From Adineta vaga (Eukaryota > Animalia > Rotifera), in the NCBI GenBank assembly GCA_021613535.1, contig CP075497.1, positions 9,610,001 through 9,674,000 on the forward strand: a stretch of 64,000 nt of DNA, written 5' to 3'. A program made the position numbers and the translations under genes. Position 1 is the stretch's first letter, and each line of letters begins with the position of its first letter. The notes beneath the pieces were generated by a model. The model had not been told where the DNA came from. It did not search any database and saw nothing but the letters and a program-made list of their open reading frames with translations. Below, in pieces: positions 1 through 56,888 of the stretch.

Positions 1-1660
1 TTTATTGCGATCATAAATTCATTTCATATAGATCTCGATATCTTCATTGGCGTATTGGTCTTTATTGTATGCTACTGTTACTTGTATTCTTAATTCCATT
101 CTATATTGCATATCTATTACTAAATTCAGTTAAAATCGGTAGGATATTTGTTATTTTGAAATTAAATTCATAGTTTTATGACCATTATTTAGTTCGAGAT
201 TTTCGTCTTGTCATATTTTTTACATTAATTGCGTGGTGTTTTTATTTGTATATGTTCTGGAAACTGGGCAATCCATTTCCGATTTCCAATCGACATGAAT
301 TCTTTAGTATTGAACAGTGTATAAGTCGAGTTGGAATTATCGGTGTTACAGCAATGGCTATTCTAAGTGGATTTGGTGGTAAGTTAAAAAAACATTCCAC
401 TCAAAATTAATGTACAATTCAGATGTTTTCTTTCAGCTGTCAATTGTCCATATACATATATGACGTATTTCATTAAAGTAAGTGTAACAAAAATCTATAC
501 TTTCAAATGGATAAGAATTTTTAATCGTTCGTTTAGCCTGTTACTGATAAAGATATTAGTGATGCACAAAAACGTTTGAAACAAGTCATGGAAATTGTTG
601 CTACTAAAAAGAAACGTGTTGCTTATATTGAGTATGAAAATTCTTTGAAATCTACATATAATTCTTCATTAAATTCAATGAATAATCGATTGAATTTTTT
701 CCGTCGAGTATTAAATTCAAGTTTTATGTCACCATCGAATTCAAATATGTCATATAATCTATCAACAATTAAGCAAGATATTGTAACATATGAAGAAATT
801 TCTTCACAATTATATGGTGTTCTTGTCGATTTACAAGGTGTACAACAACGAATTGAATATTCAAAGACATTGAAAGGCAAATATTTTCATGTCTTAGGAC
901 ATTTTTTTTCATTATATTGTATATGGAAAATTCTTATCTCATTCATTAATATTATTTTTAATCGAGTGGGAAAAGGTAAGATCAAAGAAATAAATTCAAA
1001 CAAAGAAATTTATTTAAAAAAATATTTTTCTTATTTAGTTGATCCAGTAACACGAGGTATTGAATTAACAGTACATTATTTCAATCTTCAATTCGATGTT
1101 AAATTTTGGTCTCAATATGTTTCATTCATATTGATTGGTATTATTGTTGTTACAAGTATTCGTGGTTTATTAATCACATTAACAAAGGTTAATTAACCAT
1201 TGATTTATCATCATTTTTATCATATTTTCCTTTTTTTGTTCTATAGTTCTTCTATATTATATCCAGTAGTCGTTCGTCAAATGTTATCGTTTTATGTCTT
1301 GCTCAATTGATGGTAGGTAGTTTTCATTGAAAGACTAGGAAATCCGGGATGATTATTTAATGCTTCTTTTCAGGGTATGTATTTCATATCTTCCGTTCTT
1401 CTGATTCGCATGAATATGCCTGCACAATATCGGTACAGTTAATCTTGAAGAGAAGGATATTCTAAATAAAAATAAATTTTGATTTTAGACAAATTATTTC
1501 GCAAGTATTGGGTGATTTACAATTCAATTTCTATCATCGATGGTTCGATTGCATCTTTCTTCTTTCGGCATTATTCAGTATTGGCATTCTTTATTTACAT
1601 TATCGAATATCTCAACAATCAATTACACTCTTTGATAAGAATGTTCAAAAGGTTGAATGA
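1..1660 (+). CDS. GPR89: Golgi pH regulator GPR89/GPHR, multi-exon, 5' end outside the window
   Basis: Spliced exons give FWKLGNPFPI, EQCISRVGIIGVTAMAILSGFG|AVNCPYTYMTYF, YSKTLKGKYFHVLGHFFSLYCIWK, DPVTRGIE, FDVKFWSQYVSFILIGIIVVTSIRGLLITLTK, GMYFISSVLLIRMNMP and VLGDLQFNFYHRWFD. Stop TGA at 1658-1660. Confidence 0.95.
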
Positions 1661-2267: not shown

Positions 2268-3476
2268 ATGGTGAGGAAGCAATTAAAAATATGATATTTA
2301 CAAACGGTTCAGTATATATTTAGATTTGTTGGAAATTTATATTTATTCTTGCCGCATTAACAACGGCAACACAAGCGGATTGTCCATTGAGCCAAAATCC
2401 AAAAGCTGTCATTGAATGTCTTCGTTACATAACATCAGGTCTTTATGGAGCTATTACAAAAGGTGAGTGAAACATCAAGGTTAGAGAAGAAAAACGATGT
2501 TTCCAATGATCTATTATAGATTTAAAAATAATATGTAATATCGCATCTGATATTGCAAGTTGCGCAAGAAGAGAATTGGGTGATTGTGTGGCAGCAGAAG
2601 TAAAATAATAATTCTAAAACTATTATTGTTATCATCTATAGATATTTTTATTAGGTTGGAAGAAAAGCACTTGATGAAGTTAGAGATTTGGCTGAAAACT
2701 GTTGTCCAGATCGAAATCATCCACGATGCCCGATTCGAGGTTTGTCTAGAAAATCCATTCGATAATGATATTTCATCATATTTCATTCTACTCTCATTAG
2801 ATTCAATAATACATGACCAACGTTGTTTTGCAGCTGATTCTCTTGTTACTCTTGCAAATGGTCAACACAAATCTATTGCACATCTACAATCTCATGACAT
2901 ACTTCTCGCCTATAGCGACAAAACAAAACAGATCATTCCAACACACCTTCTTACCATGCTCGACTTTCAGCTTCATCGATTCGGTAACTCACTGCATTCA
3001 CTTGTCATTTCAAACATATCTACACACGTTTATCCACTCTAGCTCTCTTCAAACAAGTGACAACTACTAGTGGTCGACAGCTATCACTCACTTCATCTCA
3101 TCTTCTTCCAACAAACGAACATGGCTATGTGATGGCCAAAGATCTTCACATAGGAATGAGCATCTATGTGATGAGTGATGAGAAGGTGTTGAGAAGTGAA
3201 ACAATTACGAATGTGACAGACGTTATGAAACAAGGATATGTTGCTCCACTGACTGCTGAAGGTACATTGATCGTGAATGATGTTGCAGCATCGTGTTATG
3301 CAACAATCAACAGTCATCATGTTGCTCATTTTGCAGTGGCACCAATGCGGTGGTGGTATGGTGTGTTTGGAATGTCACGGAAAGGATGTGATGAAATAGA
3401 AGGTGTGCATTGGTTTGCAAAGATGCTGTATGAAATAACTGCATATCTTGTTCCATCGATCATCCACAAAGGATAA
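2268..3476 (+). CDS. Hedgehog-related Hog protein, copy 1: signal peptide + 8-Cys domain + Hint + sterol-recognition region (6 exons)
   Basis: ATG 2268 is followed directly by an intron. The spliced product is M-ICWKFIFILAALTTATQA-DCPLSQ...CCPDRNHPRCPIRDSIIHDQR/CFAADSLVTLANG...LSLTSSHLL...GYVAPLTAEGTLIVNDVAASCYA...HVAHFAVAPMR...GVHWFAKMLY. These are Hint and SRR motifs of the Hedgehog C-terminal domain. Confidence 0.92.
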
Positions 3477-5336
3477 ACAAATTTCTCTTCTTTTGTAATC
3501 TATCTATTTACATGTTAACACGAACGGACTGATTTATTTAAGAACGAAATTAAAGTGATTCAACATACACATACAATAATAGATACTTTATAAGATTTGA
3601 ATGACGAAGGAATTCGTGTGTTTTCAAAGATTTCTAATCATAAATAATCATTGATGATAAAATATATGACAACAATCATGTTAGGTAAATCTATGTCTAA
3701 ACGTCCATCTTTCAGTTTACTATTGCAACCTCACTTTTCCGAGTTATTTTGTTTTCTACATTTCGAAATCGGATACGAATTTGTTTATTTGGCAAAAGGA
3801 AGTATATCCAGTGATAGAATTGTCAACACTTGATTTAAATAAAAATGCATCACGTTTCATATATCATAAACCAGCACTAACATGATCTTTCTGTGTGATG
3901 AATTAATCGCTCGAAATCTTTGAATATTTATTTTTTTCAATTTCGAGAAAACGAAATCAATGTATGCAGTCGTTTGTCTTATGCACCAGAAAAAAAGGTT
4001 TGTAATTTCAGCTTCTCTTATCACAAAGAAGTGACATGATATAAATGGTGAACAACATTTGCATATTCATTTGTCGAACGTTATTTTCGAAGGCAATCTA
4101 CCTTGCCACTCTCGTAATACTATTCATCATGGTAAGTTGATTATAATAATATAATATATTATTGATAAATGATTATGACGGATCGATATAGATATTGTTC
4201 AAAATCCTATGTTTCTTTGGTTGTTTTGTTTTGATCACAAATGCCAAATGTAATTTAACAGCAGAACCATTGGAATTAATTGATTGCCTATCGCATATGA
4301 GCACCATATTACTTGGATTTGCAAAAAATGGTTCGAATAAAAGTGCATCTTTTATATGTTAACTATTGAATATGTTTCAGATATCGGAAGGGTATGTCGA
4401 TCAACTTCCTTGATTGCGCAATGTGCCCAAGGTCATTTATCGGAATGTGTTGGACAACAGGTTTGTTAAAATACCGTTCTTCGTGTAAGGAACTATTGCA
4501 GTTCCTATATTTTCTCTATACAGCTTGGTATCGCAGCTTTAAACGAAATCAAAAACTTGGCACTAAATTGTTGTCCAGATCGTAACAGTGCAAACTGTTC
4601 TTTTCGAGGTTTATTTCATATAGGCAATCTTAGTCTATGTATTGTTCCCTTTTCCTATAGACTCGACACTAAAAGATCAACGTTGTTTTGCAGCTGATTC
4701 TCTTGTTACTCTTGCAAATGGTCAACACAAATCCATTGCACATCTACAATCTCATGACATACTTCTCGCCTATAGCGACAAAACAAAACAGATCATTTCA
4801 ACACACCTTCTTACCATGCTCGACTTTCAGCCTCGTCGGTTCGGTAACTCACTGCATTCACTTGTCATTTCAAACATATCTACACACGTTTATCCACTCT
4901 AGCTCTCTTCAAACAAGTGACAACTACTAGTGGTCGACAGCTATCACTCACTTCATCTCATCTTCTTCCAACAAATGAACATGGCTATGTGATGGCCAAA
5001 GATCTTCACATAGGAATGAGCATCTATGTGATGAGTGATGAGAAGGTGTTGAGAAGTGAAACAATTACGAATGTGACAGACGTTATGAAACAAGGATATG
5101 TTGCTCCACTGACTGCTGAAGGTACATTGATCGTGAATGATGTTGCAGCATCTTGTTATGCAACAATCAACAGTCATTATGTTGCTCATTTCGCAGTGGC
5201 ACCAATGCGGTGGTGGTATGGTGTGTTTGGAATGTCACGGAAAGGATGTGATGAAATAGAAGGTGTGCATTGGTTTGCAAAGATGCTGTATGAAATAACT
5301 GCATATCTTGTTCCATCGATCATTCACAAAGGATGA
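2821..5336 (+). repeat. Direct repeat 2821-3476 / 4681-5336 (offset 1860 nt) covering the Hog module
   Basis: Manual line-by-line comparison finds 11 substitutions and no indels in 656 nt. The 59-nt introns at 2984-3042 and 4844-4902 are identical. Confidence 0.95.
4128..5336 (+). CDS. Hedgehog-related Hog protein, copy 2 (same exon structure, divergent N-terminal domain)
   Basis: ATG 4128 is followed by a gtaagt donor. The spliced product is M-ILFKILCFFGCFVLITNA-KCNLTAEP...CCPDRNSANCSFRDSTLKDQR/CFAADS..., with a Hog domain nearly identical to copy 1. Confidence 0.92.
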
Positions 5337-6227: not shown

Positions 6228-7203
6228 TCAACAGAGAAGATTTCTTGGATATGATTTTTTAATCCAAAAAACATTTCCTGGCCATTCTTTATTTAGCCAT
6301 TCATTTGGATTAAGTTCTTTACAATATGGATCTGTAGGAATATAATCACGAGCAGCAAAAAAATTCACTATAAATTGATATCGTTTTTTATGATTAACTC
6401 GCCAAGAATGCCATTCCATCATAATATAAGGAATATTAATCTGATCAAATATTTTCGAACCAGTTTGACACATATAACTTTCTGATGTTTCAATATCTAT
6501 TTTAATCATTGCTGTTTTAACTTTTCGTTCGATTAATATTGGTAGTAAATCATCGAATTCAATCGTTTTGACAACAAATTCATTTTTCGATTGTTTTTCT
6601 GTTGTTCGATTTACTAATCTTATACCACTTGGATCATCTGTTGTTAGAGTTAAATATTTACCTGCAACTGAATAAAGAGCATTTTGAACAAGAACAACTC
6701 GTTGTTGAGCATTTCGCATTTGTATTGCACGAGCTATGCGTTCAATTCCCGGTCGATAACATTCAATAACTAAAGTGAAACGTCCAAGAGCACCTGCTGT
6801 GAACATTGTAAATCCACCAATATTGGCTCCAATATCAATCATGTCCATTCCCGGATTACGAATTAGAATATTTAACAAACGTGTCACATCCGAATCTTCC
6901 CAAACTCGTAGGACACGAACTCTCACTGACTGTATCATGTTTTGAATGCAGACAAAGATTAGTATGATATAAATTAAATAATTTTACTGTTTCAATACAT
7001 GTAAAATTCCTGTCAAGAGATGGATCATCCGGATTAATAATATTAACATTAGGAGAGAGAAGTTCAGATGTTTGAAATGATCCATATTTGTATTTTTGAT
7101 GGATTACTTGAAAAAATCGCAGAATGAATAAGCATAGCGAAATGAATATAATCAATTGGAAAACATTACGACCAACTTTAATAGTATATGTCGATACACG
7201 CAT
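6228..7203 (-). CDS. FkbM-family (Methyltransf_21) SAM-dependent methyltransferase with N-terminal membrane anchor; intronless, frameshift near 6918
   Basis: Motifs are MIDIGANIGGFT, VLVQNAL and MIKIDIETSE. The overlapping upstream ORF supplies the hydrophobic anchor (VFQLIIFISLCLFIL) and HDTVSES, which continues as RVLRVWE in another frame. Confidence 0.8.
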
Positions 7204-11691: not shown

Positions 11692-14600
11692 TTAACACAT
11701 AGTATTTGAACAAGCACATTGTTTGAAAAAATCAAGTGACTGTCTATATGTAAAACCACTTGTACATGTCATACGAAAGAATCGACGTTTGGGTTCAACT
11801 GGTTTACAACATGATGATTGAGTACCATTTGTTAATGATGGACATAAACCTGTACATTTTGACATACGTAAACGTCGATTACTTGTACATTTTGTCAATG
11901 GATCAATATAATATCCTGTTTCAATACTTAAACCACATGAATGTATTAAGGGTAATGCAACTGATGTTGATATTGCTAAAAGAAATATTAATAACTACTT
12001 TCGATTTAAAAGTAAAAAGAAAAGATCATTTACGTTGACTACATGTCGAACCAGTATATCCATCATGACAAATGCATCTGTAATTGAAATTATTTAAACG
12101 ACATTGACCATGTTGACATGTAGCAGTTGTACATGATGATTGATCGGATTCATTATTTTCACAACCAGGTAATATTTTATGACGATAATCAACATTAGCA
12201 AAATTAACTGGATCATCATTGATATAAAGTGCATGAACACAACCTTTGAAATCGAACAGAAAAAAGTTATTTTTCAAAAATTTGTTTTAGAATATTGTCC
12301 TACCTTGAAATGATGTTGCTTCGCGAATATGCCATAATTGTAAAGCTCTCGCTGTCATATCATTAGGTATACCAGCAATGTATAAAGCACGAATTTCAGT
12401 TGTATTCAAATAAGCACGCTGACCACGATTATTAATATACCGTGTATAACCTCGATCAACAGTTAAACTAAAGTTTTGTCCAACACTAATCAATTGTAAT
12501 TCATGAATTTTACCTAGAAGAATGAAATTCAGATATTAATTCTTCTTAAATAAGATTATATAACAGAATGAAAATTAAAATAAACAAATTTCTTACCATC
12601 ATTAACAGTATCATAACTAAACATGACAGAACCTGGTGAATTGCTAACATCATAACTAACACGAATTCTTCCCATAAAAATTTCCGCAACCATATGTCCC
12701 AAATGTCCAAAATAAACTAAAACTCCGCTACTATGTGTTGTACTAAATATAATTGTAATATTCGAACGTGGATAAACATTTGGTTTAGGTAATTTCATAT
12801 ATGAATCATTTGTTATTGAATGAACACTCTTTAACATGACACATCGATCACCAATAAAACCTGGATAACATCGACATCGAAGTTTATTCATGGATGCTTC
12901 ATAACAAATACCATTATTGGAACAAACTTCAGGTGAACATCGTGTAGTTACTGTTTGATTTATAGTAGTTATAAATGATGCTTTTGATTGTGGAGCAATT
13001 TCACAATGTTTACCACTAAATCCTATGTCACATTTACACGTATAACCATTGACATCATCAACACATACACCAAATTGACAAGCATGATTGGAACAATCAT
13101 TTAAATTGTCAGTACAATTTATTCCTCCCCAACCCGATGTACATTCACATCTAAATCATACACGTATTAGACAATCCTTGACATATTCGCTTTTTCAATC
13201 GCCTTACTTATAGCCATGATTTGTTCTAGAACAGCGTCCATTATTGTTACATGGATTCAATTCTTTTTCACACCAGTTTAATTTTACTTCACAATATTTT
13301 CCTAGATAAATCAAAACATATTTAAATGAAAAGTTCTTGATCTCTCTCTCTCTCTCCTCCTTACTTACCTGTAAACAATGGTGAACAATTACATGAATAA
13401 TCATTTATTTTATCAATACATATTCCATTATTTATACATCGATGAGAAATACAATCATCTATATTAATTTCACATCGGTGTCCTGTAAAACCTATTGGAC
13501 AATGGCATTTAAATCGACCATCGGCAAGAGCTTGACATCTTCCATTCGATTTACATGGATTATCAAAACAAGCATCAATTATTTTTTCACATCGATCACC
13601 ATGATAAGTAGGCAGACAATCACATGTAAATTTTTCTGTTGATAATGCACGACATGAACCATTATTAAGACATCGATTTTCTTCAGCGAAACATGGATCA
13701 CATTTTCCACGATGACGTCTCGATTCACTTTCATCTAAAGATTTGTTTTTTCAAGTTACATAATCAGAAACAAAAGAGCAAAAATAATAGATGACATACT
13801 GTGACATTGAAAGAAAAATATTGGAGATGTAAGAAGCAGTTTGTTTGCCATCGGAGGTGGTCCAGCACATCGAGCAATACCTATTTAATTATGAGAGAAT
13901 TTTACGAAAACAATCATCGAAACATATCCAACTGTGAGATAAATATTTATTTATTACTAAGAAATATCAGTTGTCATTACGTAATCAAATTCTTATTGGT
14001 AACAAAACATTCGTAAGAAAAAGTTTGTTCTTTCTACCAATGTACTCAAGATGAAGTATTAAAGTGATAAAAGACTCTTCCAATTCAATTTTAGAAGTTA
14101 AGATGTCTATGATCTAATCGTTACTTTAACAATTCAAGGATATTCACATAACAAATCGAAAAAACTCCTTACCAGGTTCGACATAATCCGTTTTAATCCA
14201 TGATGATAACCATCCAAGATGACAATCACAATAGAGTGGATTGCCACCCAATGCACTAGAAAACAGACAAATATAATTTTTACTATAAATCTCTCATTCA
14301 ATTTCACTTACACATGTGATAATGCTGTCAGATCATTGAATGAACCTTCTGGTATGGTTGAAATTTCATTTCCATGTAATGATCTATAAAAGAAGATGAT
14401 ATAATTTTTGACAAAAAAATCTCCTTCCTAAAGTTCATACGTACAAGATTCTTAAATTTTTCAATCCTTTGAATGACGATGATTCTAAACAACGAATTTT
14501 ATTATAGGATAAAATCAATGTTTCCAATCGAGTTAAATTTGAGAATATATTTGCTGGTATAGCACGTAATTTATTATAACTTAAATCGATTCTCATCAAA

Positions 14601-17600
14601 TAAATAAGACGATTGGTTAATTCTAATGGAATATCTTGTATATCATTCGCATCTAGATATAATTCTTCAGTATCGATCGGCATTTGTTCGTACGGTATTT
14701 GTGTTAATTGAGCATGTGAACATCGGACAACATGGTTGTAACATGAACAATTTTGTGGACAAGAATTTGGATAAGAAACATCGCATGCATCGACTTCAGT
14801 AGCTAGATAAAGAAATTCAAAGCATTTTGTTTTAGAATTTATCATTATATACTTACGATTACAAACAAAATCATCATCAGTTAAATTGACAATCTAAAGA
14901 AGAATGAATGAATGATTATTTCATTGAATTTATCTAATAACTGAAAATACTCACTGGAATATTTCGTAATTTCGTAGGTGACATACATCTATATACGAAA
15001 AAGAAATTAATAAACAATGACAGGAACATGAAGACACTTACTTTGGATAACCTGTGACAATTTTACTTTGTTCTAACCAATTTTTCAACCATCTCATATG
15101 ACAATTACATACAAATGGATTGGATAAAAGATCTCTACAAAAATGAAGATGAACAAAAGATTTTTTTTCAAATAATCAATCTTACAAAGTCGATAATGAT
15201 TGTAATCGATCGAAAGAACCAGGTGCAATACATTTAATACGATTATCATGTAATGATAATGTTTTAAGTGTATCCAAATCCAAAAATGTATCATTTTTAA
15301 TATGAGTTAGTTTATTTGTTCGTAACATTAATGTATGAATATTTTTTAAACCATTGAAAGTATTCGTTGTTATTGTATTTAAATTATTATCACTTAAATA
15401 TCTGAGAAGAAAAGAATTAATTGGGTATTTGAGTTCAAAAAAATTCAAAAGAAAATATTTTACAATTCAGTGAGAGACTCAGCTCCATCGAAAGCATCAT
15501 CATCAATTTCTTCCAAACGATTATTTCGTAAATCCCTAAAATACGATCAAGAAAATAATGAACAAAATCTAGGAAATCATTGTTCAGATACATACAATGT
15601 ACGAAGACTACGTAAACGACGAAAACTACCATCACGTGACACTCGTTTGATTAAATTGTCTTGAAGATGACTATAAAATCATCAAAAAAAAATGAATAAA
15701 CTAATTTATCTGTAGAAAATATTCTGATATCTCTGGTACGATTTCTATCGGTATTATCGTCAGATATCGATGCAAAACTTAACATATGACTTACAGTGCG
15801 GTGGTAAATGCTGGTATATCACTAGGTATTTCTTGTAATTGTAGTCCACGACAGGTAACAATTGTTCCATCACATGTACAACTTTTAGGACATTGAACAC
15901 TACACTGAGCACTATAAGCTGTTTGTTCATATTCCATTCGATCTAATCAAATAAGATTTTTGTTTTGCTTTTTCAATATTAGAAATTAAGATTAAGAAAC
16001 AAACTTCGACAACGAAATCTTCGATCGTTTAAGACGCCAAATTTACGTTTTGCCATACGTCGTGGTCCAGCACATCGAACGCCACTTGTTTCAATTTGTT
16101 TTCCACGTAAATAAGCATTTAACCAACGAAGATGACAATCACATATAAATGGATTACGTGCCAAATGTCTGGAAGAATATAATTAATGATTAAATATCAA
16201 TTTAAAAACGAAGACCTATAAACTTACAATGTTTGAATACTTTTCAATGGTAAGAATGTTTCATTTGATAATGTTTTCAATTGATTGTCATACAATGATA
16301 ATAAACTTAATTTTTCCAATCCACGAAATGTATCCCCACGTACACATACTATTTTATTTGCATTAAGTAATCTATATACAAAATAAAGATATCATTCTGA
16401 GTAAGAATTCCTCAGAATATTCATTATCTTTACAAATAGATGCAATCATGTCTACAAACAACAAGCATTCTAATCTAAGCTTACTCACAAGAGTTGCAGA
16501 TGCGTGAATTCATGATGAAATACACCGAATGGTAAATGCACAAGCTGATTGTTTGAGAGTATACTATATCCATAACCAATAAATAAGAATAAATAATTCA
16601 TGCAAGTGAGTATGTGAAAGATATTTTTAAAAAAATGATAAAATTTATCGGCATGACAAATTAATTTTCATGCGATTTTCTTTTTTTTTCTATTAGATTA
16701 GAACCAACACCAAATATCATGACAAAAGTGTAAATATGCAAATGTGAGTATTTAACATGCCTTAACTCCTATATCAATCTCATTCATTCATTCTCGATCA
16801 CTCACAAAAGCTGTAAAGAGTTCAATTCATTGAACACTTCAGATGGTAACATTTTGAGATTATTTCGATAGAGAATACTAAATAATGTTGATACTCATGG
16901 AAAATGAAAGAAAAATCATATACGTACAGTGAATTAAGTGATTTCAGACCGGCAAATGAATCTGGATAGATTGTTGTTATTAAATTATTGCTTATATCTC
17001 TGAAAGTAACATTATCATTTTTGTGAAATGTTATTTTTATAGGAAAAGTCTTCTTACAATCGTCGAAGTTTTTTCAAATGAGAGAATATTTTCGGTGGAA
17101 TTTCTGTTATTTGATTTTTTTCCAAACGTCTAAAATTAGTTTAAATTCAATCAAATGAAATATAAGAAAGAAATCATCATACAATTCAATTGTTGTATCT
17201 GGTATATTTCTCGGGACTTCAATAAGATCTTTATCTTTACAATCAACAACACCATTAAAACATGTACACGGATATGGACATATAGGTACATTGCATGTAT
17301 AATCGATGTCATCGATATCTATTTACGAAAAATGAACACGCGATAACATTTTTCTAATGTAAATTACTTAGTTTAGATCTTACCCATACTATTGCATTGT
17401 TTTTCATCATCAATTAATGATGTTATATCTCTCAAAGTAAGTGTATTTGAATCTTGACATCGAGCATTGAGACCAAGAAAGGGATGTAATTTAAGATATT
17501 TAGCAAGCCAAAGAAGCCGACAATCACATACAAATTGATTATCATGGATTCGACTATAATGAAGAAAACAAATAGATGACATTTTACAAGAAAAAAGAAA

Positions 17601-24905: not shown

Positions 24906-27900
24906 ATGTCTTCAAAACGTCTCCAACGTCTCGAACAGCTCGAAAAAGGTGTCAGTGATCTATCTTTAGGAATAGGTCAAGCTGGTGATGATTCCGATGA
25001 TGATTCCAAACGAAAAAATAATAAGAAAAAAGGTGGTGCTGCAAAGAATAAACAACCACCACAATCAGTCAAAGTAGTTGCTGCAGAAAAACAAGTTTCC
25101 GATAATGACGATGATGATCAATCAACAACGACAAAAAATACTCGACAACATGATTCTGATGATGAGAAGCCTCGAAATAAAAATGCTAACAAGAAAAATA
25201 AAGGAAAGAAAAATAATAAACATATAAATGATGATGACGATGATGAAGATGATCAAACTTCTGTTAAACAAGGTAAACTATTTCTTTCAAATCTATATTT
25301 TCATAGGAAAACTATTTTTTCATTTAACAGCTTCACTTCCAGCTGATTCCGATGATGATCGTAATCAACGAAATAATAAGAAGAAAAATAAAGGAAAACA
25401 GAAAACGAAAGATGATGATAATACATCAGTAACGACGGAAAATAAATCTGATCGAAAAAAACCAAAAGGTGGAAAGAAAGGTGCTATCACAGATGATGAA
25501 GAAGACGAAGACAAAAATGAAAATGATGTACCTTCAGCATCAGCACCTGTTCGAGAAGAAGCTCAACAAGGTAAATTCTTTTTCTGCATCATTCTTTCCT
25601 GAATACTTTTTTTGAATAATTCTAGCTACAGTCGATTTTTCTGATGAATCCGATGATGATGATCGATCGAAGAAGAAAAATAAAAAACAAAATAAACAAA
25701 AGAAAGGTGGAAAACAACAAACAGTGAAAGGTACGTTTTCAATTATGTACAATTTTACCTATGAAAATTTGATTTTTCTAGCTGAAGCAGATGAAGAAGA
25801 AGTTCCAGAAGAACCTGTTGTCTCGTATACTCAACCAATTGCAAATAAAGAAGTAACACAAGGTTTGATTTCATTATTTCCAAAAAAATTTATTTCTTTT
25901 TCAAACTATTTTTTGTTTTCAGCACCAATTGAATGGAGTGATTCTGATGATAATGACAAAAAGAAGAAATCAAAATCGAAAAAGAAACAACAAGAAAATG
26001 TTGTTGAACAACCTATACCAGCTCCTGTTCAACAGAACCCACACCACCTATTATTGAACCACAACCGACACCAACTGTTACTGAACAAGAACCACCAGTA
26101 TCACGTATGTATTTCTTTCATTAACATTCGAATCTTGTACATAGCTGAATGGCATCCAATAATAGTCTCATACTTTGTTGTATGAATCATTCAGCTTAAA
26201 ATTTGTCGATATTGAAAAATCGCTTATCTGTTGTTTACTTTGTGAACTGATTGACAGATTGATTTATGCAAGTCGATGATATTTACACATTTTTGCTCAA
26301 TTTTAGCTGCTGTTACAAAAACAACAACAACAACAACAACAACAAAAAAGAAGATTTCAAGAAAAGAATTAGAAAAATTAACAGCTACTGAAGAATCAAC
26401 ACCAATGGATGAAGATGTGAAAGAAGAAGATGAAGATGCTACTGTCGAAGCAGAAAAAGAAGAATCAGTCGATAAACCAACTGAAAAGAAATTAACACGA
26501 AAAGAACAAAAAAAATTGGAAAAGAAATTAGAATTTGAAAAAATTATTGCAGCTGCACCAGAAACTGATCAATTTTCTGTGTCGCAAACAACAACACAAA
26601 GCCGACAAGCTCAACTTTTTGATACAGCTATCGATATTAAAGTTGAAAATTTCTCCATTTCTGCTCGTGGTAATGATTTATTTGTTAATGCAAATTTAAA
26701 TATTTCCAATGGTCGTCGATACGGTCTTGTTGGACCTAATGGTATGGGTAAAACAACATTATTAAAGCATATTGCCAATCGACAATTAGCTATTCCACCT
26801 AATATTGATGTTCTTCTATGTGAACAAGAAGTTCAAGCTGATGAAACATGTGCATTAGATATTTTATTAATGGCTGATAAGAAACGTTTAACATTACTTG
26901 AAGAGCAAAAACGACTTGAATCTCAACTAGAAACATCACATGATGATACTTTACAAGATAAATTACGTCATGTTTATGATGAATTGAAAGCCATTAATGC
27001 AGATGCAGCTGAACCAAAAGCACGACGTATTCTTGCTGGTCTTGGTTTTACTCCTGAGATGATAAGTCGTCCATCGAAAGCATTTAGTGGAGGTTGGCGT
27101 ATGCGTATTTCACTTGCCCGTGCTCTTTATATTGAACCAACATTATTAATGCTTGATGAACCGACAAATCATCTTGATTTAAATGCTGTTATTTGGCTTG
27201 ACAATTATCTTCAATCATGGAAGAAAACTTTATTAGTTGTTTCCCATGATCAATCGTTTTTAGATAACATTTGTACGGATATTGTTCATTTAGATGCGAA
27301 GAAATTGTATTATTATAAAGGCAATTATTCACTATTTAAAAAGATGCTTTTACAAACACGTGCACAACAATTAAAAGATTATGAAAAACAAGAACGTGCA
27401 TTGAAAGCATTAAAAGACCATGGACATTCATCAAAACAAGCATCAGCAAAAGTTGGCAAACGTGAAGAACAAAAGAAGAAAGAGAAAGATCGAGGAAGAA
27501 AGCACGATACTGCTGATGATGAACTAACAACTGGAAAAGAATTATTACAAAAACCAAAAGAGTATCAAGTTCGATTTCGTTTTCCATCACCACCACCACT
27601 CAATCCACCAGTATTAGGTGCATATGATATGACATTTGGTTATGAAAATCGTGAGCCACTTTTTCGAAAACTTAATTTTGGTATTGATATGACAAGTCGA
27701 ATAGCAATTGTTGGACCTAATGGTGTTGGTATGTAAACGATTTAAATAATTATTACAGACAAGTGATTTGAGAGTAAAGAATATCTTCATATGAGGTCAT
27801 CTAAATGAGAAACAAATAGTACTTGACATTGTATTTTCTTATGACATAATCATTCAATATTGAGACTTTTACTAGAAGGTTAAGACTAGGAGAAAAGAAT

Positions 27901-29930: not shown

Positions 29931-32900
29931 TTAAACGTCATTGGAATTGTGTTCAGATGTTTGTTGGTCATCATTAACAATCGTTGACGACGTTTGTGTA
30001 CGTCGAGGAATAGTGGAATAACGATGATGATGATGACGATTGCGAGGTCTCTGTTGAGGACTCAAATCTGATGGAGAAATTGAACGTTGAATTTGAGAAT
30101 TAAGTAACATTAGATTATTTAAAGATGTTTGATATTGTGGATGATATGTATGAATTACAGCGGAAGCTATCGAATAAAAGAACAAAGGATCTATCAATAA
30201 TAATAGAATGAAATATTCATACCAGAAGCAACTGAAGATTCATCATTATTAGTTTGTGTCATTGGACGGAACAATGCAGCAATATTCGTTTGATTATCTA
30301 GTTAGAAAATAAACATAGAATTCATTTTTTTTGTCTTAAAATAATGATATATTAAAATACCAATAGGATGTAAAAGTATATTTTGTTGATCATTTGAACT
30401 TCGTTGTAGGAGATCTGCAAGTAATAAATCGTCGTTATTATCAAATGATAATGTTTCATTCGAATGATTTGGATTATTTATTGCTAATGTATCTGTTTTC
30501 CAAACATGAAGAGCATGTTGAACAATATCATCAATATCTGCAGATAAAACACTAAGTGTAATTGGATCTGGTGCTATACTATCCGATTTGATAATTGCCG
30601 ATGCAGTATTTTGAGTCGTTGGTGCTGAAGAATTAAGAATATCATTTGATCTGACAGCAGGTGAAGCAACAATAAGAGAATAATGTTGATGAAGATTTTG
30701 TTCATTTGGTGCTGATTGACTACTGAGAGTAACGGTTGTAATATCACATGTTGTACCACTTTCAACATCATTTTCAGTTAAGCTATAAAAATCAAAATCG
30801 TATTATAATTCTAGTCAAATATTATTCCATAGAACTGATCAATTAGAATTTTTTTTTCAAGGTTTAATATTGTTGAAAGAAATCTTATGATAGTTTGAAG
30901 AATTTTTTGTTAAATTCTCTTGTTCAAATAAATAAATCTTACTTACGCATTTTCAACATCAATGTCATTTTCATCGTCTTCATTGTCATCATCTTCATCT
31001 TCATCCGAACTTAATTCTTCTGAATCAACTGGACATGATACATCAGACTATAGGACAAAAAGAATATTTTTTCATATGAATAGATTAAGACATTTTAATC
31101 TTACTTCAAGTGATGTATGTTCGTCATCATCGTCATCATTTTCTTGTTGTTGTTGTTGTTGTTGTTGTTCATCTCTTCTCATTGTATCTACAACATGTGT
31201 CTTTACTGTATTATCATCTTGTTGCTGTAGTTGCTGTTGTTGTTGTTGCTGCTGTTGTTGTTGATAATGATGTTGATTATCATCATTGATTGGACTAGTT
31301 GAAAGAATCTCTTCATTATCATTTTTTTCTGATGAAGGTAAACTACGTCGTTTTGTTGTCATAAGAAAATGAATTTTTTCACGTAAAATTTTGATTTCAT
31401 TATGTAAATGATGATTATCATTTTCCACATGTGTTATATACCATTGTTGATCTCGACATTTTTGTTGATATGTTGGTGGACGGACTTGAAAACGTAAGAT
31501 TAATATATCACTATCAGTATCCAAAAAGCCTTCGCTTATCAAAGCATCAAGTAAAAAAAATCGATTATAACCCCAACATTCTCCAACTTCAAAATCTGAC
31601 GCAAATTCTCGAACAATATTTTTCGATGGATCTTTACTCAATTGATGAATCATTTCTACACGATATTCATATTTCGATGGTTCATTTAAACCATTTGTTA
31701 ATTCAAGAAAGACGGATAAATATGTTCCACGAACAGTTCCATTCCCATCGGGATATACTTTTAAACGCCATGTTAAACCATTGACATGTAATGGTTGACT
31801 ATAAATTGGATCGACATTATGTCGAAGAATAGAAAAATTTGTAATAACAAATGTACTTGAGTCATATTGTGGAACAATTTCACTACAAAGTAAAAGATTA
31901 TTTTTCCTTTTCGAAGAAAATAATAAAAGAATTACCTTGGAAAATCACATGGAACAGGTGTTGTAACAAAACTTGTCATTGGTTTTCGATAGATCATTTG
32001 AATAGAATTTAGAAGATCTTGTTGTTTACCAATAACTTCAGCTTTTCCACTTGTTGATACTCGATGTTCAATATCTTGTAAAACATGTTCGATTAATTCT
32101 GTTTCACGTGAAAATTGAAGACGTTGAACTAAATCAAACGATAAAAACAATGTTTTATTATCTTCATAAGAAACAATAATCTCATCTTCTTTTAATCTAC
32201 ATACCATTCAAAGCATCTAATTTAACTTTAAGTTGTTCATCTAATTTCGCTTGCATAACATGCATAGCATTTCGAGTTTCTCGAAATCGTTCATCTTTTG
32301 CTGCTTTTACACTTTCAACATTTCGTTCCTAATATGAAATGTATCATTAAATAAATGTTAATTTTTTTTATCAAAAATATTATAAATACATACCACATCT
32401 TGTATCAAACAAATCAATTCAACATGTCGTCGTTTCAATTGACCAATATGTTCGTTCACTGCAGATATATTAGCTTGATAAACATCATCAAGTGGTACAA
32501 ATAGATGACCAGCATGCTAATTAATATAGAAAAGGAAAAATCAATGAAACTTCTGTATCAATATGATGTCTTACTGAGCCATTGAATAATGCACATTGAT
32601 GACAAATACATTTCGAACATGAAGAACAGAAAACACTCAGCTTTTCTCGATGTATTTCACATCTAAAATAAAAGACAAGAATTCAATTTCTTTTAAATCG
32701 CAAAAGAAAACAACAAGTTACTTACTTGTCTTTTTCTTCACGTTTTTGTTTACTCATTTCATTAACTTTTAAACTATCGAGTTGACTGGTTACTTCTTCT
32801 GCCCATCGACAATTAACTAGATCATGTAAACGAAGTGTTGCTCGACAATGTGGACATTGTTGACGTTGATCTGTCAACCATCTCTATTTCATAAAAAAAA

Positions 32901-33159: not shown

Positions 33160-34974
33160 TTCGTTTTATTTTCAATCTTCAAAGAAATCGAATAAAAATC
33201 AAAGTTTGACAGCACACCTGAAATCGATCGAATGAGTACGTGAACGAGAAGAAAAAGAACAACAATTGATCGATCAATCAAATCAGACACTCAAAAAAAG
33301 TTTGCATCCACAGATTTCCACTAGTCCATTGGTGTCAAGGACAACAATCTCTTTCATTTCTATTAGATGTCGCTCGTAGACATTCATCATATTCAAAGGT
33401 TCAATAGTTGAACTCTTCTCTTCTCAAAATGTTCATTGTTGAATAGAAAAACGTACAGCTATCATTTGATTTATTCATATTCCATTCTTTTCAATAAGGG
33501 AAAAACCAACTATTGTGGGTTTTTTCACAGAGTTATTTCGTAGATTATTTATTTGCTATCGTTTGTTGTTTCGCACTTGAAATACGATTTATGTTACATT
33601 TCGAAGAAAAAACAAATTTTTCCCATATACTTGGAGAACGTTTATCTATTTACCAATGGCATAAGAATCCATCTTCTTTGCACGTGATAATCATGCATTC
33701 ACAGTTAAAATAGATATTTGTCAAATTACTTTATTCTCTCAATAGTATATTTATTACATAATGACATGCAATATAGTTTTTGCACTGATAAATTGTTTGG
33801 ATTCAACGTAGTTCTGTTTTTTCTATATCATTCACAAATATGCTACTTAGTAAAACTTTCGTAAGTAGAATCACTTTAGGAATTTTGAAATCTAACAACT
33901 TTTAATCTGAAATTCATGTATCTATACACTCAGTTAAGTTTCTTTTATCTTGAAGAATACGATATTACTGAATAAATCCCGGACATCGTACGTCATTTTT
34001 ACTCATATCATATTTGTTTTTATGTGAATTTTATCATATTCTGACATATACAAAAATATATGCGTAGAAATAAATGAGATTAAGTGCTTTCTTTTTTTAG
34101 ATAAAACGGAAATTTTTCTGTACTACTCGATCTATTTTTATCGATACGGCTGTATGCATGTCACATTCTGTAACAACGACTAATACGGACACACCTTTTA
34201 CGTAGTTGGATAAAAACCAGATTACGCAATGTATATTTACTCTCAATAATTTACTGCGAAATAAGAATCAAACAATGAGAAACGAAGAGATTGTTTTTGT
34301 TGTTGTTTTTCGTCGTAAATTTTTCTTTGTTTCAGAGAAATGTTTATTCCTTATCAGTGAAGGTAATTGTAAAGGAAAGTACAGGTATCGGTCCATTTAT
34401 AAAAAAAAGCGAGACAAATAACTTTACGATTAACAAGTGATCGCAGTTCTCAAAATGGTACAACTCTAAAATCATAGGTTTTCAAAAGCAATTATGTTAA
34501 TTGACAAGACTAGATCACAAATTATATTCAAGCTAAATAATTTAGTCATTCATTTATCTCTTTGATTAAGAGTATTTCTATGAAGATTAATACTAATACC
34601 AAATCAATAAGTTCGAAAGTATATAAAGATCGTATTTCTTCTTCCTTATTTTAAACGATCGCCAAGTTGGAAACTTTTTCTTTATCAATGACGAAGAAAA
34701 AAGTGCGGAAAAGAAATTTTTCGAATAATGATTCATAGATTATGAGTGCATGTCTAGGGCAAAGAGAAAATTAATAGGAGAGAAATAAACTCTGCCAATA
34801 ACGAAAGTGGGTGTGTCTTTTATGAGGAAAAAAAGTTATATTTAGATTACAATTGCGTTCGATAATTTGGAACTTCTCGTATATAAATATGCAAATAGAT
34901 CATATATGAAAAGAAAATTTCTATATTCAATGCAACTTACATACTCTTAATATATCAATCATTACAAATTAACA

Positions 34975-36273
34975 ATGAATTCACCAAAAGTATCTAGAGC
35001 TATACTGGTTAAAGGTAATGTTGGTGTTCAATCCGAATGTGGAAAATTAGATGTAGTTCTTATGCATCGGCCTGGTCAAGAGCTTCGACGGTTGACCAAG
35101 GATAATATTGAACAACTTCTTTTTGATGAAATTCCCGATGTTAATCAAACACAAAAATCACACGATACATTTTCCAAATATCTACGGGCTAATGGTACAC
35201 ATGTATTATATATGAAGGATCTTTTAACTGAAACATTAACTGTTAGCCGTGATGCTTGTCAAACCCTCATCGATGGTATAATTACCAATAGCATGTTGAA
35301 AGGCAAACGTCAACAAGAATTATTAACAGCATTACGTCAATGGTTAACAGATCGAACTCCAAAACAGTTGGTTGATGATATTATCACTGGTGTTGCTCGA
35401 TTATCACGTGAACTTGGTTCTTCTCTTGCTGCTCAAACAATTCTCAGAGAATCCGATCCAACTACTGAATTCATCATCCCACCATTGCCTAATTTATTAT
35501 TCACACGTGATGCATTCTCAATCATCGAAAAACATGTCTTCATTTGGAATATGGCTAAACCAGCTCGACGAAATGAGCCACTTATTTTTCGTGTTATCTT
35601 TCAATATCATCCTCAATTATCAACTTCAGGTCTCAATATAATGGAATGGCAATCGATAATCAATGATGGACAGATGGCAACAATTGAAGGTGGTGATGTG
35701 GCTTATCTTGGTCAAGGCATTTTACTTATTGGTTCTGGTGAACGAACAAATCGAGCAGGTATTGAAGCTCTTGCTCGAACAAGTGTATTTCAACGAATAA
35801 TTGCTGTTAAAATTCCAGCACAACGTGATTATATGCATTTAGATACTGTTTTAAGTTCAGTAGGTAAAAATACTTTTACTTTACACGGATTATTAGCTAA
35901 CCAAATGGAAGTCTTTACGGTTGAAATTCGTGATGATAACAATAATGTTTTTATTTCTGCAAAATGGATTTCATATGGTTCGGATGTTCGTGGAGCACTT
36001 CGAAAATTATTGAATGATAATAGTTTGATATTTTATGACGCTGCAGATGAAGCAACATCGATAGTTGAACAACGAGAATGTCGTCATAATGTTTTAGCAA
36101 TTGATGATTGTCATGTAATGACTTATGCTGGTGGTAATATGGAAAAAGGAATGGTCAGTCAAATGATGCGCAATAATGCTTGTCGTGTTGGTCTTATACC
36201 ACCTGAAGGTTTATTAGAAGGTGGTGGTGGTGCTCATTGTATGACAAATGCCATACGAAGACGTGCTAAATAA
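34975..36273 (+). CDS. arcA: Arginine deiminase (ArcA-like), intronless
   Basis: GVQSECGKLDVVLMHRPGQELRRLT, LLFDEI, PLPNLLFTRD, IEGGDV, ERTN, MHLDTV and GGGAHCMTNAIRR. The catalytic Asp, Glu, His and Cys are all present. A TATA-like tataaata lies near 34882. Confidence 0.93.
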   Translation: MNSPKVSRAILVKGNVGVQSECGKLDVVLMHRPGQELRRLTKDNIEQLLFDEIPDVNQTQKSHDTFSKYLRANGTHVLYMKDLLTETLTVSRDACQTLIDGIITNSMLKGKRQQELLTALRQWLTDRTPKQLVDDIITGVARLSRELGSSLAAQTILRESDPTTEFIIPPLPNLLFTRDAFSIIEKHVFIWNMAKPARRNEPLIFRVIFQYHPQLSTSGLNIMEWQSIINDGQMATIEGGDVAYLGQGILLIGSGERTNRAGIEALARTSVFQRIIAVKIPAQRDYMHLDTVLSSVGKNTFTLHGLLANQMEVFTVEIRDDNNNVFISAKWISYGSDVRGALRKLLNDNSLIFYDAADEATSIVEQRECRHNVLAIDDCHVMTYAGGNMEKGMVSQMMRNNACRVGLIPPEGLLEGGGGAHCMTNAIRRRAK

Positions 36274-40362: not shown

Positions 40363-41992
40363 TCATTCTGTTTTAAGCATTTCATAAAATTTCCGTTGTT
40401 CTTCATGTCGATAATCAGCTTTTGGCAATGAACGTTTCAATCCACCATCCCATTCTAAATCAACAAAACCACCTTGTTTAGCAATAGCTGCTTTTACACG
40501 ACGAGCAAAATCAATAGATAGTTCATTCGGTTGAATTTTCATCGGTGGTAAATAATAAACATCAACAACAATTGCCCATGATGTCATCATTAAAATTAAA
40601 TATTGAACTAGTTGATGCTTCGATGAATTCCAAAATGCATCACCAAAACGATTATCATATTTAATTGCAACAGGATATATTGGTGCTTCGCTTATTTCAA
40701 AACAACCTTTCTTAAACATCATGACGGATGTATTGTTTATACAAGTACCTTCGGGAAAGATTAGAATAGGTAAATTGGTTTGATTTTCAATATGTTCACG
40801 CATTTTTTCAGCAACCATATGACGATCTTTTGCTTCAGAACGTTCAAACCAAATATGATTTGCAGTTTGAGATAAAGTTCTTTGTACTAAACCAAAAAAT
40901 CCGCCATGTTTTTGTCCAATCATAGAAAATCCATTATCAGTTGATAGAATAATCACGTCAATCGGTACGTATGATTTGCAACACAAATTGATCCACATTT
41001 AGCACGATGTTCAGTATTATGAAAGGTAATAATAGCTGAAAAGACACGTGATAAAATTCGATGTAGAACAATATTAATGTAAAAACCAAAACGAAATTTT
41101 GCTTCTGAAATTGGAAAATATCTTAGAAATATAATTGAGCCCATCATCCAAAACATGGCCAAAAAGAATAAACATAAACGAAATGGAAATAAAATAAAAT
41201 AACGTATAAGAAAACCAAGAAACCATAAGATTGTCACACGTAAAGAAAATAATTCATGATGTTGTTGAGTACGTGTCAATAAGTTCCATACAGCCATTTC
41301 ATCAGCTGATGTAAAACGTTTTGTTACTTCATCGTCAACAATAGCTTCTAAACCTTGACGAGTATAATCCATAATGTCACCTAAGTAAAAGGAAATCTTT
41401 TTGATAGTTGTTCGTTTAGATTTAAAATGAATAAATTTACTTAATTTAAACTGAATATCAGTTTGTGATGGTACTCTTAATATTGTTTGATTTTGTTGTT
41501 CAATAGTGACATTTGATGAATTATACATATCGTCTTTTTGTGATGCGTTTGTTATCGATGTAGTTGGACTAAGTTCAATTGCACTATCAAATGAAGTATC
41601 AGTAGGATGTGATTCAATTTGTGGTGTTGATAAATTCATCGATGCAGGAATAGCATCGATCGATATTTCTTTATCTTTTTTGATTTTTGTGGCATAATCA
41701 AATAGAAACGTAAGAATTTTCACATAAAATCTTCGTATTCCAAGTGTCATATTAAGTACAGCAAGAGTAAGAACAAGAGCAGCTATACTAATCACTGGTA
41801 AACACAGAATCCCTAAAATGGCAAATAATTGTATTGCGAATGTCACACGTTGTTTTAAACTGTATGAAGACCAATGATGATAAATTCTACTAAAAAGAAA
41901 TAGCAAAAAAAAAGGGATCAGTAATTTTTTCGTTAAATTTCCAAAAGAAAGTTGATTTATCAAGCATACTTAAATCTCTTGATTTGAAGCAT
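40363..41992 (-). CDS. Glycerol-3-phosphate acyltransferase GPAT3/GPAT4 family; 1-nt deletion near 40966
   Basis: AIVDDEVTKRF, WNLLTRT, ICVANHT(S)PIDVIIL, IGQKHGG, IWFERSE, LPILIFPEGTCINNTSVMMFKKG, YPVAIKY, FGDAFWNSS and LEWDGGLKR. Confidence 0.93.
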
Positions 41993-49169: not shown

Positions 49170-49933
49170 ATTTTTATTAGAATGATTTGTTGTATGTCAA
49201 TGTCATAACCTAGACCTAGAAAAAAAGAAAAGAACAGATGATCAACAGATTGATGAACAACCATTTTTTTATTTGTGTAAATAACCTCTTTGAAATTTGT
49301 CGTAACAATCAATTGATTTGAGAAAAGATTATATTTAAATTGAAACGTAAATTAAAGTTAGAATCATTATTTAATGGATATATTTTGAATTTTAAAGAAT
49401 AAAACAAAAAAATAAAACAAAAAAAATATAATCACGAAAGAGGATACAATCGATTCGTTCATTCGTCGAGAGATTGACCAATGATAAAATAAGGCAAAGA
49501 ATTGTTCTTTTTCGATCCATGTGATTATCAGGAGTTGTTGTATGCCATTTTTTATGACTAGATAACTGAACACTGAATATGATTATCCACTGCTATTTTA
49601 TAAGAGAAAATATGTTTTTAATACAAGGAAGAAGTCGAAATTGATTTCATTGAGTTTCATTTTTGAATGCTAAATGATGATAAGATAACTTTAAGATGAA
49701 AAACTTATCAGTTTCTTTTGATAACTATGCAGATCAGATTATGAAAGGTCGAGTTCTTGTAAAAGATATTTAATCAATGCTATATATGTATATGTGCGTG
49801 CTTTGTAGATTGAATGAAGAAAGAGGCGAAGAAGATTACATGTTCGTTGTTAAGTTTACATTTAAAATACTTTCACTACTTACGATCGGGCTGTGAGTAA
49901 AACATTGAATTGTTTTAGCGTTTTTAGATAAAC

Positions 49934-51220
49934 ATGAGACGTATTCGAGTGTGTATTGTTGGTGGTGGTGCATCTGGTTTAGCGTGTGCTCGTGTTTTTG
50001 CATTAGATGAATACAATTGTGAACCCACTGTTTTTGAACAAAATTCATATGTTGGTGGGCAATGGCATTATGATTCAGATGGTACATCGGAAACGACCGC
50101 TGTTTATAAAAATTTACGAACCAATCTTCCATGTTGTGCAATGCAATATAGTGACTTTCCATTTCCAAGTAATCCACCTGAATCTTATGTAGATTGTAAA
50201 ACAGTTGAAGATTATTTAATTGCATATGCAGAAAAAAATCAGCTTTATCAATATATATGTTTAAATACGACAGTAAATTCAATTGACGAGACATATACCG
50301 TTACATATACAGTCAAATGTAATTCACAATATGAATTACCACATCGTCCTCATCGAAAATTACTGGAAAAGAACGAAAATTATGCTATTTATTCAGAACA
50401 ATTCGATGCTATATGTGTAGCGAATGGTCATTATTCCGATATTTATATGCCGAATGACATACCTGGCTTATATAATCAAACATTTCCTATTATTCATTCT
50501 CGTTCCTATCGTACTCCTGAAAATTATCGTGATAAATGTATTATTGTTGTTGGTGCTAGTCATTCTGGTGTGGATATTTGTGGTGAATTAACATCCGTTG
50601 CTAAACAAGTCATATTATCAATGAAAGAAGGGAATGAAGCATCCTTCGAACTTGTGATAAAACTTTTACAACAAAGTGGAAAAACAATATGTACAGATTA
50701 TTTATCGACAATATTTTCTATTGTTCCATCTATTGAACGTATTGATCGAGATACAGTCTTTTTCAAAAATCAAACATCAGTTAAACCAGATTTGATCATA
50801 TTTGCAACTGGATATGAATATCGAATGCCATTTCTTCAAGGCAAATTACAAGTTGATCAAACGCGTTTATTACAAGATCATTATGTTTATCCATTGTATA
50901 AACAACTTTTTCATGCGAATTTTCCCGATGGTACACTTTCATTTCTTACAATTCCTTATCGAATTGTACCATTTCCATTGGCTGAATTGCAATCACATGT
51001 AGTAGCACGTGTTTTACGTAAAAAAATCTTGTTGCCATCAACTGAACAAATGACTTTTGAAATTGATAATTCATCTTTACCACGCAATCGAACCTATCAC
51101 TGTGTAGATTGTATTAAATATGTTGAAGATTTTCTTGAAATGATGAGAGAAAGTGATAAGGATTTTAAATATAAGTTCACTATAGATAATCAACGATGTA
51201 TGCGCCAACAAATTCAATAA
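49934..51220 (+). CDS. Flavin-containing monooxygenase (class B), essentially intronless
   Basis: VCIVGGGASGL, VGGQW, YKNLRTNLP, MQYSDFPF, ICVANGHY, IIHSRSYR, VVGASHSGVDI and IFATGY. Confidence 0.92.
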   Translation: MRRIRVCIVGGGASGLACARVFALDEYNCEPTVFEQNSYVGGQWHYDSDGTSETTAVYKNLRTNLPCCAMQYSDFPFPSNPPESYVDCKTVEDYLIAYAEKNQLYQYICLNTTVNSIDETYTVTYTVKCNSQYELPHRPHRKLLEKNENYAIYSEQFDAICVANGHYSDIYMPNDIPGLYNQTFPIIHSRSYRTPENYRDKCIIVVGASHSGVDICGELTSVAKQVILSMKEGNEASFELVIKLLQQSGKTICTDYLSTIFSIVPSIERIDRDTVFFKNQTSVKPDLIIFATGYEYRMPFLQGKLQVDQTRLLQDHYVYPLYKQLFHANFPDGTLSFLTIPYRIVPFPLAELQSHVVARVLRKKILLPSTEQMTFEIDNSSLPRNRTYHCVDCIKYVEDFLEMMRESDKDFKYKFTIDNQRCMRQQIQ

Positions 51221-51245
51221 CTAGATCTTCTTCTTTTTTTTGTAG

Positions 51246-56766: not shown

Positions 56767-56888
56767 TGAAACAAAAGACTAACATGAATCACTTATGTTT
56801 CTAATAAAAATATTATCATTTTTTTTCCCAATATATCAGCAAAAACGAAAATCAGAAATAGAATATTTTCTCTTTCATTTCTTTCAAG

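Follow-up and report, generated by a model that had tools for sequence, protein, structure and literature searches.

Tandem hedgehog-related genes of bdelloid rotifers with diverged ligand domains and a probably gene-converted Hog domain

Hog autoprocessing domains are found behind varied N-terminal domains in the Warthog, Groundhog and Quahog proteins of nematodes, in Enop, and in cnidarian and protist Hog genes (PMC2362128). Lophohog genes are described from the molluscs Lottia and Acanthochitona and from the annelid Capitella (PMC5103448, PMC9695228), and region-limited concerted evolution of tandem duplicates is documented for the primate red and green opsins (PMC3924837). Here we describe a tandem pair of hedgehog-related genes in a 64,000-nucleotide stretch of the Adineta vaga genome (contig CP075497.1, positions 9,610,001 to 9,674,000; hereafter the window). 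The pair very probably arose by one ancient duplication, after which gene conversion recurred in the Hog domain alone in six bdelloid rotifers, and its precursors are predicted to be secreted and to cleave themselves before Cys111, releasing a sterol-tagged, disulfide-rich ligand of 91 residues.

Like the Hog proteins named above, the rotifer proteins combine a predicted signal peptide, a Cys-rich N domain and a Hint plus sterol-recognition region (SRR), and tandem pairs are found there too, as in Xhog1/2 of T. spiralis (PMC2362128). The rotifer N domain differs from theirs in that it matches no Pfam family above cut-off. The Hog part resembles that of canonical Hedgehog (Drosophila Hh, human SHH) from end to end, with all catalytic and SRR motifs alike, whereas the rotifer genes lack a Hedge domain and carry Arg instead of Gly before the Cys. 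As in the opsins, paralogues are closer than orthologues in one part and the reverse holds in the function-bearing part (PMC3924837). Here, however, protection extends over the entire ligand domain, where synonymous sites are close to saturation, conversion extends over the entire enzyme module, and the pattern holds in two genera. The words 'rotifer', 'gene conversion' and 'concerted' do not occur in the main text of PMC2362128, and rotifers are unmentioned in the available text of the two Lophohog papers (PMC5103448, PMC9695228). Nor did the titles and abstract openings that were searched, a scope that left most subscription papers outside, give any account of this rotifer family or tract. 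The rotifer family may be the rotifer branch of Lophohog. Neither the process nor the architecture seen at the locus is new in itself; new is the form that they take here, which is replicated.

The two genes, A (g1) and B (g2), are offset by 1,860 nt. Both have six exons of 3, 139, 80, 85, 183 and 434 nt, and spliced contigs bear out the shared layout that a preliminary description of this DNA had proposed from its letters. The features of the locus are as follows.

2268-3476, plus strand: gene A, 307 amino acids; open spliced frame, with five of five introns seen in spliced contigs
2268-2270, 2324-2462, 2520-2599, 2655-2739, 2801-2983 and 3043-3476, plus strand: exons of gene A
2268-2817, plus strand: N part of gene A, a likely signal peptide and an eight-cysteine helical domain of type A, with introns 1-4; all eight cysteines are invariant in 20 and 42 relatives, and there is no Pfam match above cut-off
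2818-3476, plus strand: putative conversion tract of gene A, Gln-Arg and then Hog (Hint and SRR), ending at the stop codon; Cys codon at 2824, intron 5 at 2984-3042; 11 of 656 differences, change point at codon 108/109
3477-3569, plus strand: 3′ untranslated region (UTR) of gene A, outside the homogenised part; in run X18 a loose end with poly(A) lies at 3569
4129-5336, plus strand: gene B, 307 amino acids; open frame, with introns 1-4 seen in spliced contigs
4129-4131, 4192-4330, 4381-4460, 4524-4608, 4661-4843 and 4903-5336, plus strand: exons of gene B
4129-4677, plus strand: N part of gene B, a likely signal peptide and an eight-cysteine domain of type B, grouping with the B domains of Adineta steineri and four Rotaria species (support 94/97)
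4678-5336, plus strand: putative conversion tract of gene B, Hog domain, with intron 5 at 4844-4902; 11 of 656 differences, and in other runs a single Hog unitig continues both N parts
1-1633, plus strand: 3′ part of a GPR89 (Golgi pH regulator) gene, a synteny anchor outside the system (Pfam ABA_GPCR, E 6e-15 on 537-1193)

Contigs from runs X13 and X15 skip all five introns of gene A, and those from X18 and X20 skip the last three. For gene B, introns 1-4 are absent from contigs of X15 and three of them from contigs of X13. These runs were taken as RNA by guess, their contigs skipping GT-AG introns. The lack of coverage of the gene B N exons in X18 and X20 does not show that the gene is silent. 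The spliced contigs place intron 2 of gene B at 4331-4380 (50 nt), and this model gives a gap-free N alignment with gene A. The protein of gene A is identical to the annotated A. vaga protein P0028, and its first 19 residues, judged hydrophobic by eye, form the predicted signal peptide.

The contrast between the two halves of these genes is sharp. Comparison of 2821-3476 with the sequence 1,860 nt downstream finds differences at 11 of 656 nucleotides, intron included (six synonymous, four non-synonymous, and the stop codon, TAA or TGA), and the 59-nt intron 5 is identical; both counts agree with the preliminary description. Its claim that similarity collapses near the cleavage site and after the stop also stands, but the start of identity is corrected to 2818, the Gln codon two codons before the cleavage Cys. 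Identity is 13 of 20 in 2800-2819 and falls to 3-8 of 20 further upstream and after the stop. The mature N domains share 38 of 91 residues without gaps, as had been stated, now on the contig-based gene B model, with divergence of about 1.5 per synonymous site (dS) and 0.6 per non-synonymous site (dN). From Gln109 onward the encoded residue is the same at 195 of 199 codons (dS 0.044, dN 0.009), a dN/dS between copies of about 0.2, so the similar divergence of N and Hog that had been named as the contrary outcome is not found. At third positions the change point falls at codon 108/109, with 68 of 108 differing before it and 6 of 200 after.

Noncoding sequence follows the same division. For introns 1, 3 and 4 the alignment of the cores does not surpass that of shuffled sequences (p 0.38, 0.19 and 0.80), in agreement with the earlier judgement by eye that the N-part introns do not align; intron 2 gave p 0.73, tested only with a wrong gene B donor that made it 38 nt long. 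The alignment score of intron 5, by comparison, was reached by none of 300 shuffles. The 3′ flanks show no similarity beyond shuffles (p 0.74), and the 5′ flanks yield a marginal local alignment score that was equalled in 2 of 100. GC content at third codon positions (GC3) of the Hog is 63/199, against 604/4060 in 12 Pfam-matched frames chosen from 30 long ones (p 1e-8). The Hog value also exceeds that of the gene A N part (17/107, p 0.003) but does not differ from that of the gene B N part (30/107, p 0.60). The raised Hog GC3 (0.32 versus 0.15) would fit GC-biased conversion, but is suggestive only, the gene B N part being raised as well.

The same A and B pair is present in five further bdelloids. 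Searches with the Hog protein returned 27 and 38 proteins, and all those with a species name are bdelloid. The relatives fall into type A, behind GPR89, type B, which adjoins A, and type C, behind another GPR89 at a locus that is likely ohnologous to the A/B locus. Conserved synteny is suggested, indirectly and at the protein level, by fused models, GPR89 with A in A. steineri, R. sordida and R. sp. Silwood1 and A with B in R. socialis, and by neighbouring accessions on contigs of equal length. With one A and one B taken per species, the Hogs of the two genes are 97.7-99.4% identical within each of the six species, versus a median of 79% (range 69-95) between species. The N domains reverse this relation: A and B are 35-48% identical within five species (the Silwood1 B domain is partial), whereas orthologues are 47-78% (A) and 56-82% (B) identical, in some pairs nearly as conserved as the Hog. 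Inside the tract, then, paralogues are closer than orthologues, and outside it the reverse is true.

Residue patterns tell the same story. Each species has 4-31 private Hog residues common to both copies, and no column of 182 in the Hog separates all A from all B proteins, compared with 24 of 94 in the N domain. The unlinked C Hog, about 71% identical to A or B in four species, is not homogenised, and the Hogs of two Didymodactylos genes on different contigs are 80% identical. In R. socialis the pair matches at 175 of 176 residues when trimmed just after HWF; the untrimmed value of 92% reflects mis-predicted tails. In five species the stretch of identity starts 2-3 residues before the Cys.

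Separate N and Hog trees, proposed at the outset together with dS and dN values, are discordant: the N domains (28 rows) group by position and the Hogs (29 rows) by species. Approximately unbiased (AU) tests reject the swapped topologies. They were run on 15 rows, leaving out rows with no species name, partial rows, the A. ricciae C protein and one Didymodactylos gene. With Hog data a B clade is rejected (log-likelihood drop 404, p 0.0004). With N data each of five species pairs is rejected (p <= 0.0005), and the B clade is not (p 0.43). Together with the dS of 0.044 versus about 1.5, this discordance across species upholds the earlier proposal of an old duplication whose Hog is homogenised by conversion.

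The shared Hog retains what autoprocessing requires in Hedgehog. Exon 6 matches Pfam Hint (PF01079) with 115 bits, against a cut-off of 29.7, and the alignment of the C-terminal 197 residues runs end to end with the Hog of Drosophila Hh (6td6_B, E 5.9e-24). The catalytic set is intact (C111, D157, T180, H183 and SCYA with C248), the SRR motifs are present (H259, P264 and R266, and HWF at 286), and the spacing of H259/P264/R266 is that of H374, P379 and R381 in human SHH. The human counterparts are C198, D243, T267, H270, SCYA, the HPR motif and HWY (PMC7906309). Catalytic motifs are kept in the relatives inspected. Because the catalytic and SRR motifs are intact, self-cleavage before Cys111 with sterol attachment is a likely prediction from the sequence. 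The Drosophila Hh alignment also reaches weakly into the linker before the Cys. This linker (2729-2823 in the window), with the pattern Cys-x-Ile/Phe-Arg/Lys-Asp-Ser, can be aligned to the last part of the Hedge domain in both Drosophila and human Hh, a hint that a true hedgehog gene may have been the source of the Hog exon. Separately, His replaces the catalytic Asp (the Hh D46 position) in an A. ricciae copy and in several distant members, two from Seison included (P0023/P0081, P0113, P0116, P0122, P0130 and P0138); PDB entry 6tyy is an engineered D46H autoprocessing mutant.

These observations could be explained as follows. A single tandem duplication would have produced A and B before the split of Adineta and Rotaria, genera of different families that separated tens of millions of years ago. 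The Hog halves would then have exchanged sequence repeatedly in each lineage, from DNA to DNA. We infer a DNA-level process because intron 5 is included in the tract; this inclusion rules out conversion mediated by complementary DNA. In A. vaga, where neutral sites can be followed, they are homogenised too (dS 0.044 and the identical intron 5). Exchange in the Hog would be tolerated because both genes need the same chemistry, and exchange in the N exons would likely be purged because ligands A and B do different jobs. The diverged N exons, intron 4 and 3′ UTRs would then block pairing and lock the tract between about Gln109 and the stop. The match of the tract edge to the cleavage site is partly geometry: since only eight codons separate intron 4 from the Cys and the linker shows little conservation, the closeness of edge and cleavage site need not mean selection at the junction. 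Unequal crossing-over could be a physical route for the exchange.

Unequal crossing-over between the Hogs, or repeated recent Hog duplication, might also stand alone as the explanation, by birth and death through A-B-B arrangements or by module replacement. We regard this as unlikely, although it survives better than the other alternatives. Two direct repeats of 650 nt, 1.86 kb apart, are a suitable substrate, and some R. sp. Silwood1 models read A-Hog-Hog (P0001). Yet the two-gene order, A then B, recurs wherever it can be read (P0085 and P0090, with partial B exons in P0103 and P0106), and edge sites such as 3464 bound unitigs in four runs, as if exchange fades toward the tract ends. Moreover, independent duplications with near-identical edges in six species would be unparsimonious. 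Module swapping, which the preliminary description had offered beside gene conversion, is not supported; each gene keeps its own Hog copy.

A second alternative is a modular effector system, in which one standard engine releases different, fast-changing secreted cargoes for defence or for the cuticle. The N domains of A and B are only about 41% identical, and nematode hedgehog-related proteins bear many different N domains (PMC2362128). The rotifer relatives present another picture. A profile of the N domain searched against 1.84 billion representatives gave 34 matches, of which 18 were looked up; those with names are two from Didymodactylos and three from Seison nebaliae, each with the same domain before Hint, and for this reason the family appears to be rotifer-wide. 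The short ones among the profile matches come from short contigs and have the appearance of fragments rather than of stand-alone N domains. No Hog joined to an unrelated N domain is present in the set of full-length relatives recovered, all of which carry the same eight-cysteine domain. About three copies per species (A, B and C) are seen, a figure that is not a genome-wide count. A and B are each conserved across species, and what had been described as variable cargo consists of paralogues of one family, conserved by position. These results make the effector proposal very improbable; they fit A and B as stable, conserved paralogous ligands rather than rapidly diversifying defence effectors.

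A third alternative, foreseen in the preliminary description, is an assembly or consensus artefact in which two moderately similar Hogs were collapsed or polished toward each other. No piece spans the locus, and protein P0002, which is gene A with the gene B residue at 256, shows pipelines confusing the copies. Contigs of other A. vaga runs nevertheless show the same merge into one Hog. In both X2 and X3, 2847 is the last position of the A-side unitig and 4707, the equivalent site at +1860, the last of the B-side unitig; in X2 and X5 a shared unitig begins at 2818. In X1 a B-side contig spans 4009-4793, into the Hog, with five other letters. A single 484-nt unitig of X1 and X3 covers the Hog of both copies, and the middle of the other copy has no coverage; this unitig differs from gene B of the window at 10 positions, two with the gene A state and eight with letters absent from both copies, three of these in intron 5. 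Such merging would arise where the two N parts do run into one and the same sequence. As records can be lost to filtering and the depth over the Hog is hardly raised, it gives support rather than proof. An artefact could change a few sites but not raise 70% to 98%, and the pattern recurs in five other species, so this explanation is largely refuted and very improbable. A last alternative needs no conversion: purifying selection would be strong on the Hog, and selection on N relaxed or positive. It could draw on the Hog dN/dS of about 0.2 and the conserved catalytic motifs, but it can be dismissed with near certainty given that synonymous sites and intron 5 are homogenised as well, that orthologous Hogs differ by about 21% and paralogues by 1-2% (with the unlinked C Hog at about 71% identity), and that the Hog tree is species-wise.

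Several points count against conversion confined to a self-cleaving Hog. The residue before the Cys is Arg, where human and Drosophila Hh have Gly. No long read or contig spans the whole locus, and the depth of the Hog unitig is only about 1.1-2.0 times that of its flanks, which gives no copy number. Because short-read assemblies can blur copies that are 98% identical, the polymorphism shared between positions may in part be mis-assembly. The other species are seen as proteins only, and their tandem order is read from adjacent accessions and from fused models. Two of the pairs used in the trees, those of A. steineri and R. sordida, combine different assemblies. The root of the N tree is unstable. 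Finally, the tract edge is not fixed, since in R. magnacalcarata identity starts 12 residues upstream of the Cys.

For the N domain, no Pfam family scores above cut-off among 20 and 19 members, and the window protein has no match. None of 20 N domains matches the Hedge signalling domain at E<=1, and the Wart, Ground and Qua families are absent from the Pfam matches of the 20 and 19 members, the coverage of these domains by Pfam being unchecked. The spacing of the cysteines is like that of repulsive guidance molecules (RGMs). A profile built from bdelloids only has three PDB matches at E<=10, none of them an RGM. Two deeper profiles weakly match the N domain of RGMA (E 0.011 and 0.0077), with RGMB and RGMC next, and for one deeper profile all six non-Hedgehog matches at E<2 are RGMs. 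RGM_N (PF06535) is matched in 3 of 19 members (best E 0.028), and five N-domain cysteines align with RGM, including FC-x8-C-x7-C. A first structural model was poor (predicted template modelling score, pTM, 0.46), and Foldseek gave no match to it at E<=0.001. The model of the A. steineri B domain is a three-helix bundle (mean predicted local distance difference test score 82, pTM 0.56) for which Foldseek ranks RGMB first, but with a non-significant E of 0.87. VIA returned generic bundles only (Z <= 6.9), with no RGM chain among the matches listed in either run.

RGMs are lipid-anchored co-receptors of bone morphogenetic proteins (BMPs) (PMC7354924). The rotifer domain has the five cysteines that align with those of the RGM N-terminal domain, and its predicted three-helix bundle may be RGM-like. 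The two differ in that the rotifer domain has eight cysteines where RGM has three disulfides, and in that Hog (the C-terminal 197 residues) stands in place of the RGM C-terminal part and its glycosylphosphatidylinositol (GPI) anchor. RGMB needs a Leu and a His to bind BMP2 and GDF5 (PMC7354924). At the corresponding positions after the helix 2-3 Cys, the Leu (+4) and His (+7) of RGM are absent in both A and B, and Gly occurs in type B only. An RGM-like ancestry of the N fold seems about evenly balanced between true and false, and predicted BMP binding by the N domains is doubtful. The released domains might serve as short-range signalling ligands or co-receptors tethered to the membrane, and their three-helix fold might be RGM-like. 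As a tentative proposal, and one that we think improbable in its entirety, an ancient, undescribed rotifer hedgehog-related family reaching from Seison to bdelloids would join an RGM-type three-helix domain to a Hedgehog-derived Hog exon, giving modulators of signalling of the BMP/transforming growth factor-beta type that are sterol-anchored, not GPI-anchored; in more than one bdelloid genus selection would keep the two ligands apart, and ectopic conversion, still going on, would hold their processing modules near identity.

The annotation of this region deserves comment. Proteins P0002 and P0028, both of 307 amino acids, stand under a single A. vaga locus tag, and P0002 is the gene A protein with the Tyr256 of gene B, as though its first five exons were those of A and its sixth that of B. 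This hybrid is likely a mapping artefact; real cross-gene splicing and an allele are the alternatives. GPR89 ends about 630 nt upstream of the gene A start, and several bdelloid annotations fuse GPR89 with a Hog gene (P0001, P0019, P0021 and P0023), probably wrongly because a separate ATG exon is spliced in A. vaga. Contigs of X5 with loose ends at 3040 and 5219 suggest a further, more distant Hog gene in A. vaga, possibly the C copy.

Elsewhere in the window, a long open frame at 34951-36270 (plus strand) matches Pfam ADI, arginine deiminase (E 1e-70), and could be horizontally acquired. A minus-strand region at 12559-16164 with LRR, EGF and laminin G domains and repeated LRR-N-terminal motifs is consistent with a Slit-like gene. 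At 49928-51908 (plus strand) a flavin monooxygenase-like frame is followed 28 nt away by a short-chain dehydrogenase frame, as one gene or two. Other frames encode an FkbM methyltransferase (6231-6983, minus), an ABC-F type ATPase (26255-27733, plus), a MATH-domain protein with a polyglutamine-like tract (31075-31944, minus), an acyltransferase (40366-40998, minus) and a ubiquitin-like NIF phosphatase (56862-57590, plus).

The A and B pair offers an unusually clean, replicated case of domain-limited concerted evolution, with six species, an edge 2-3 residues from the cleavage site in five of them, and an unlinked control. Trees based on the Hog misdate such duplications, and annotations merge or fuse these genes. 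In bdelloids the locus can serve as a direct marker of ectopic conversion, for its rate, its tract length and its GC bias, and it offers a test of whether a functional domain can be shielded from homogenisation by selection alone. A hedgehog-related family, apparently rotifer-wide and with a ligand domain that is uncharacterised, is added as well; should this domain be truly RGM-like, the family would link two lipid-anchored signalling systems.

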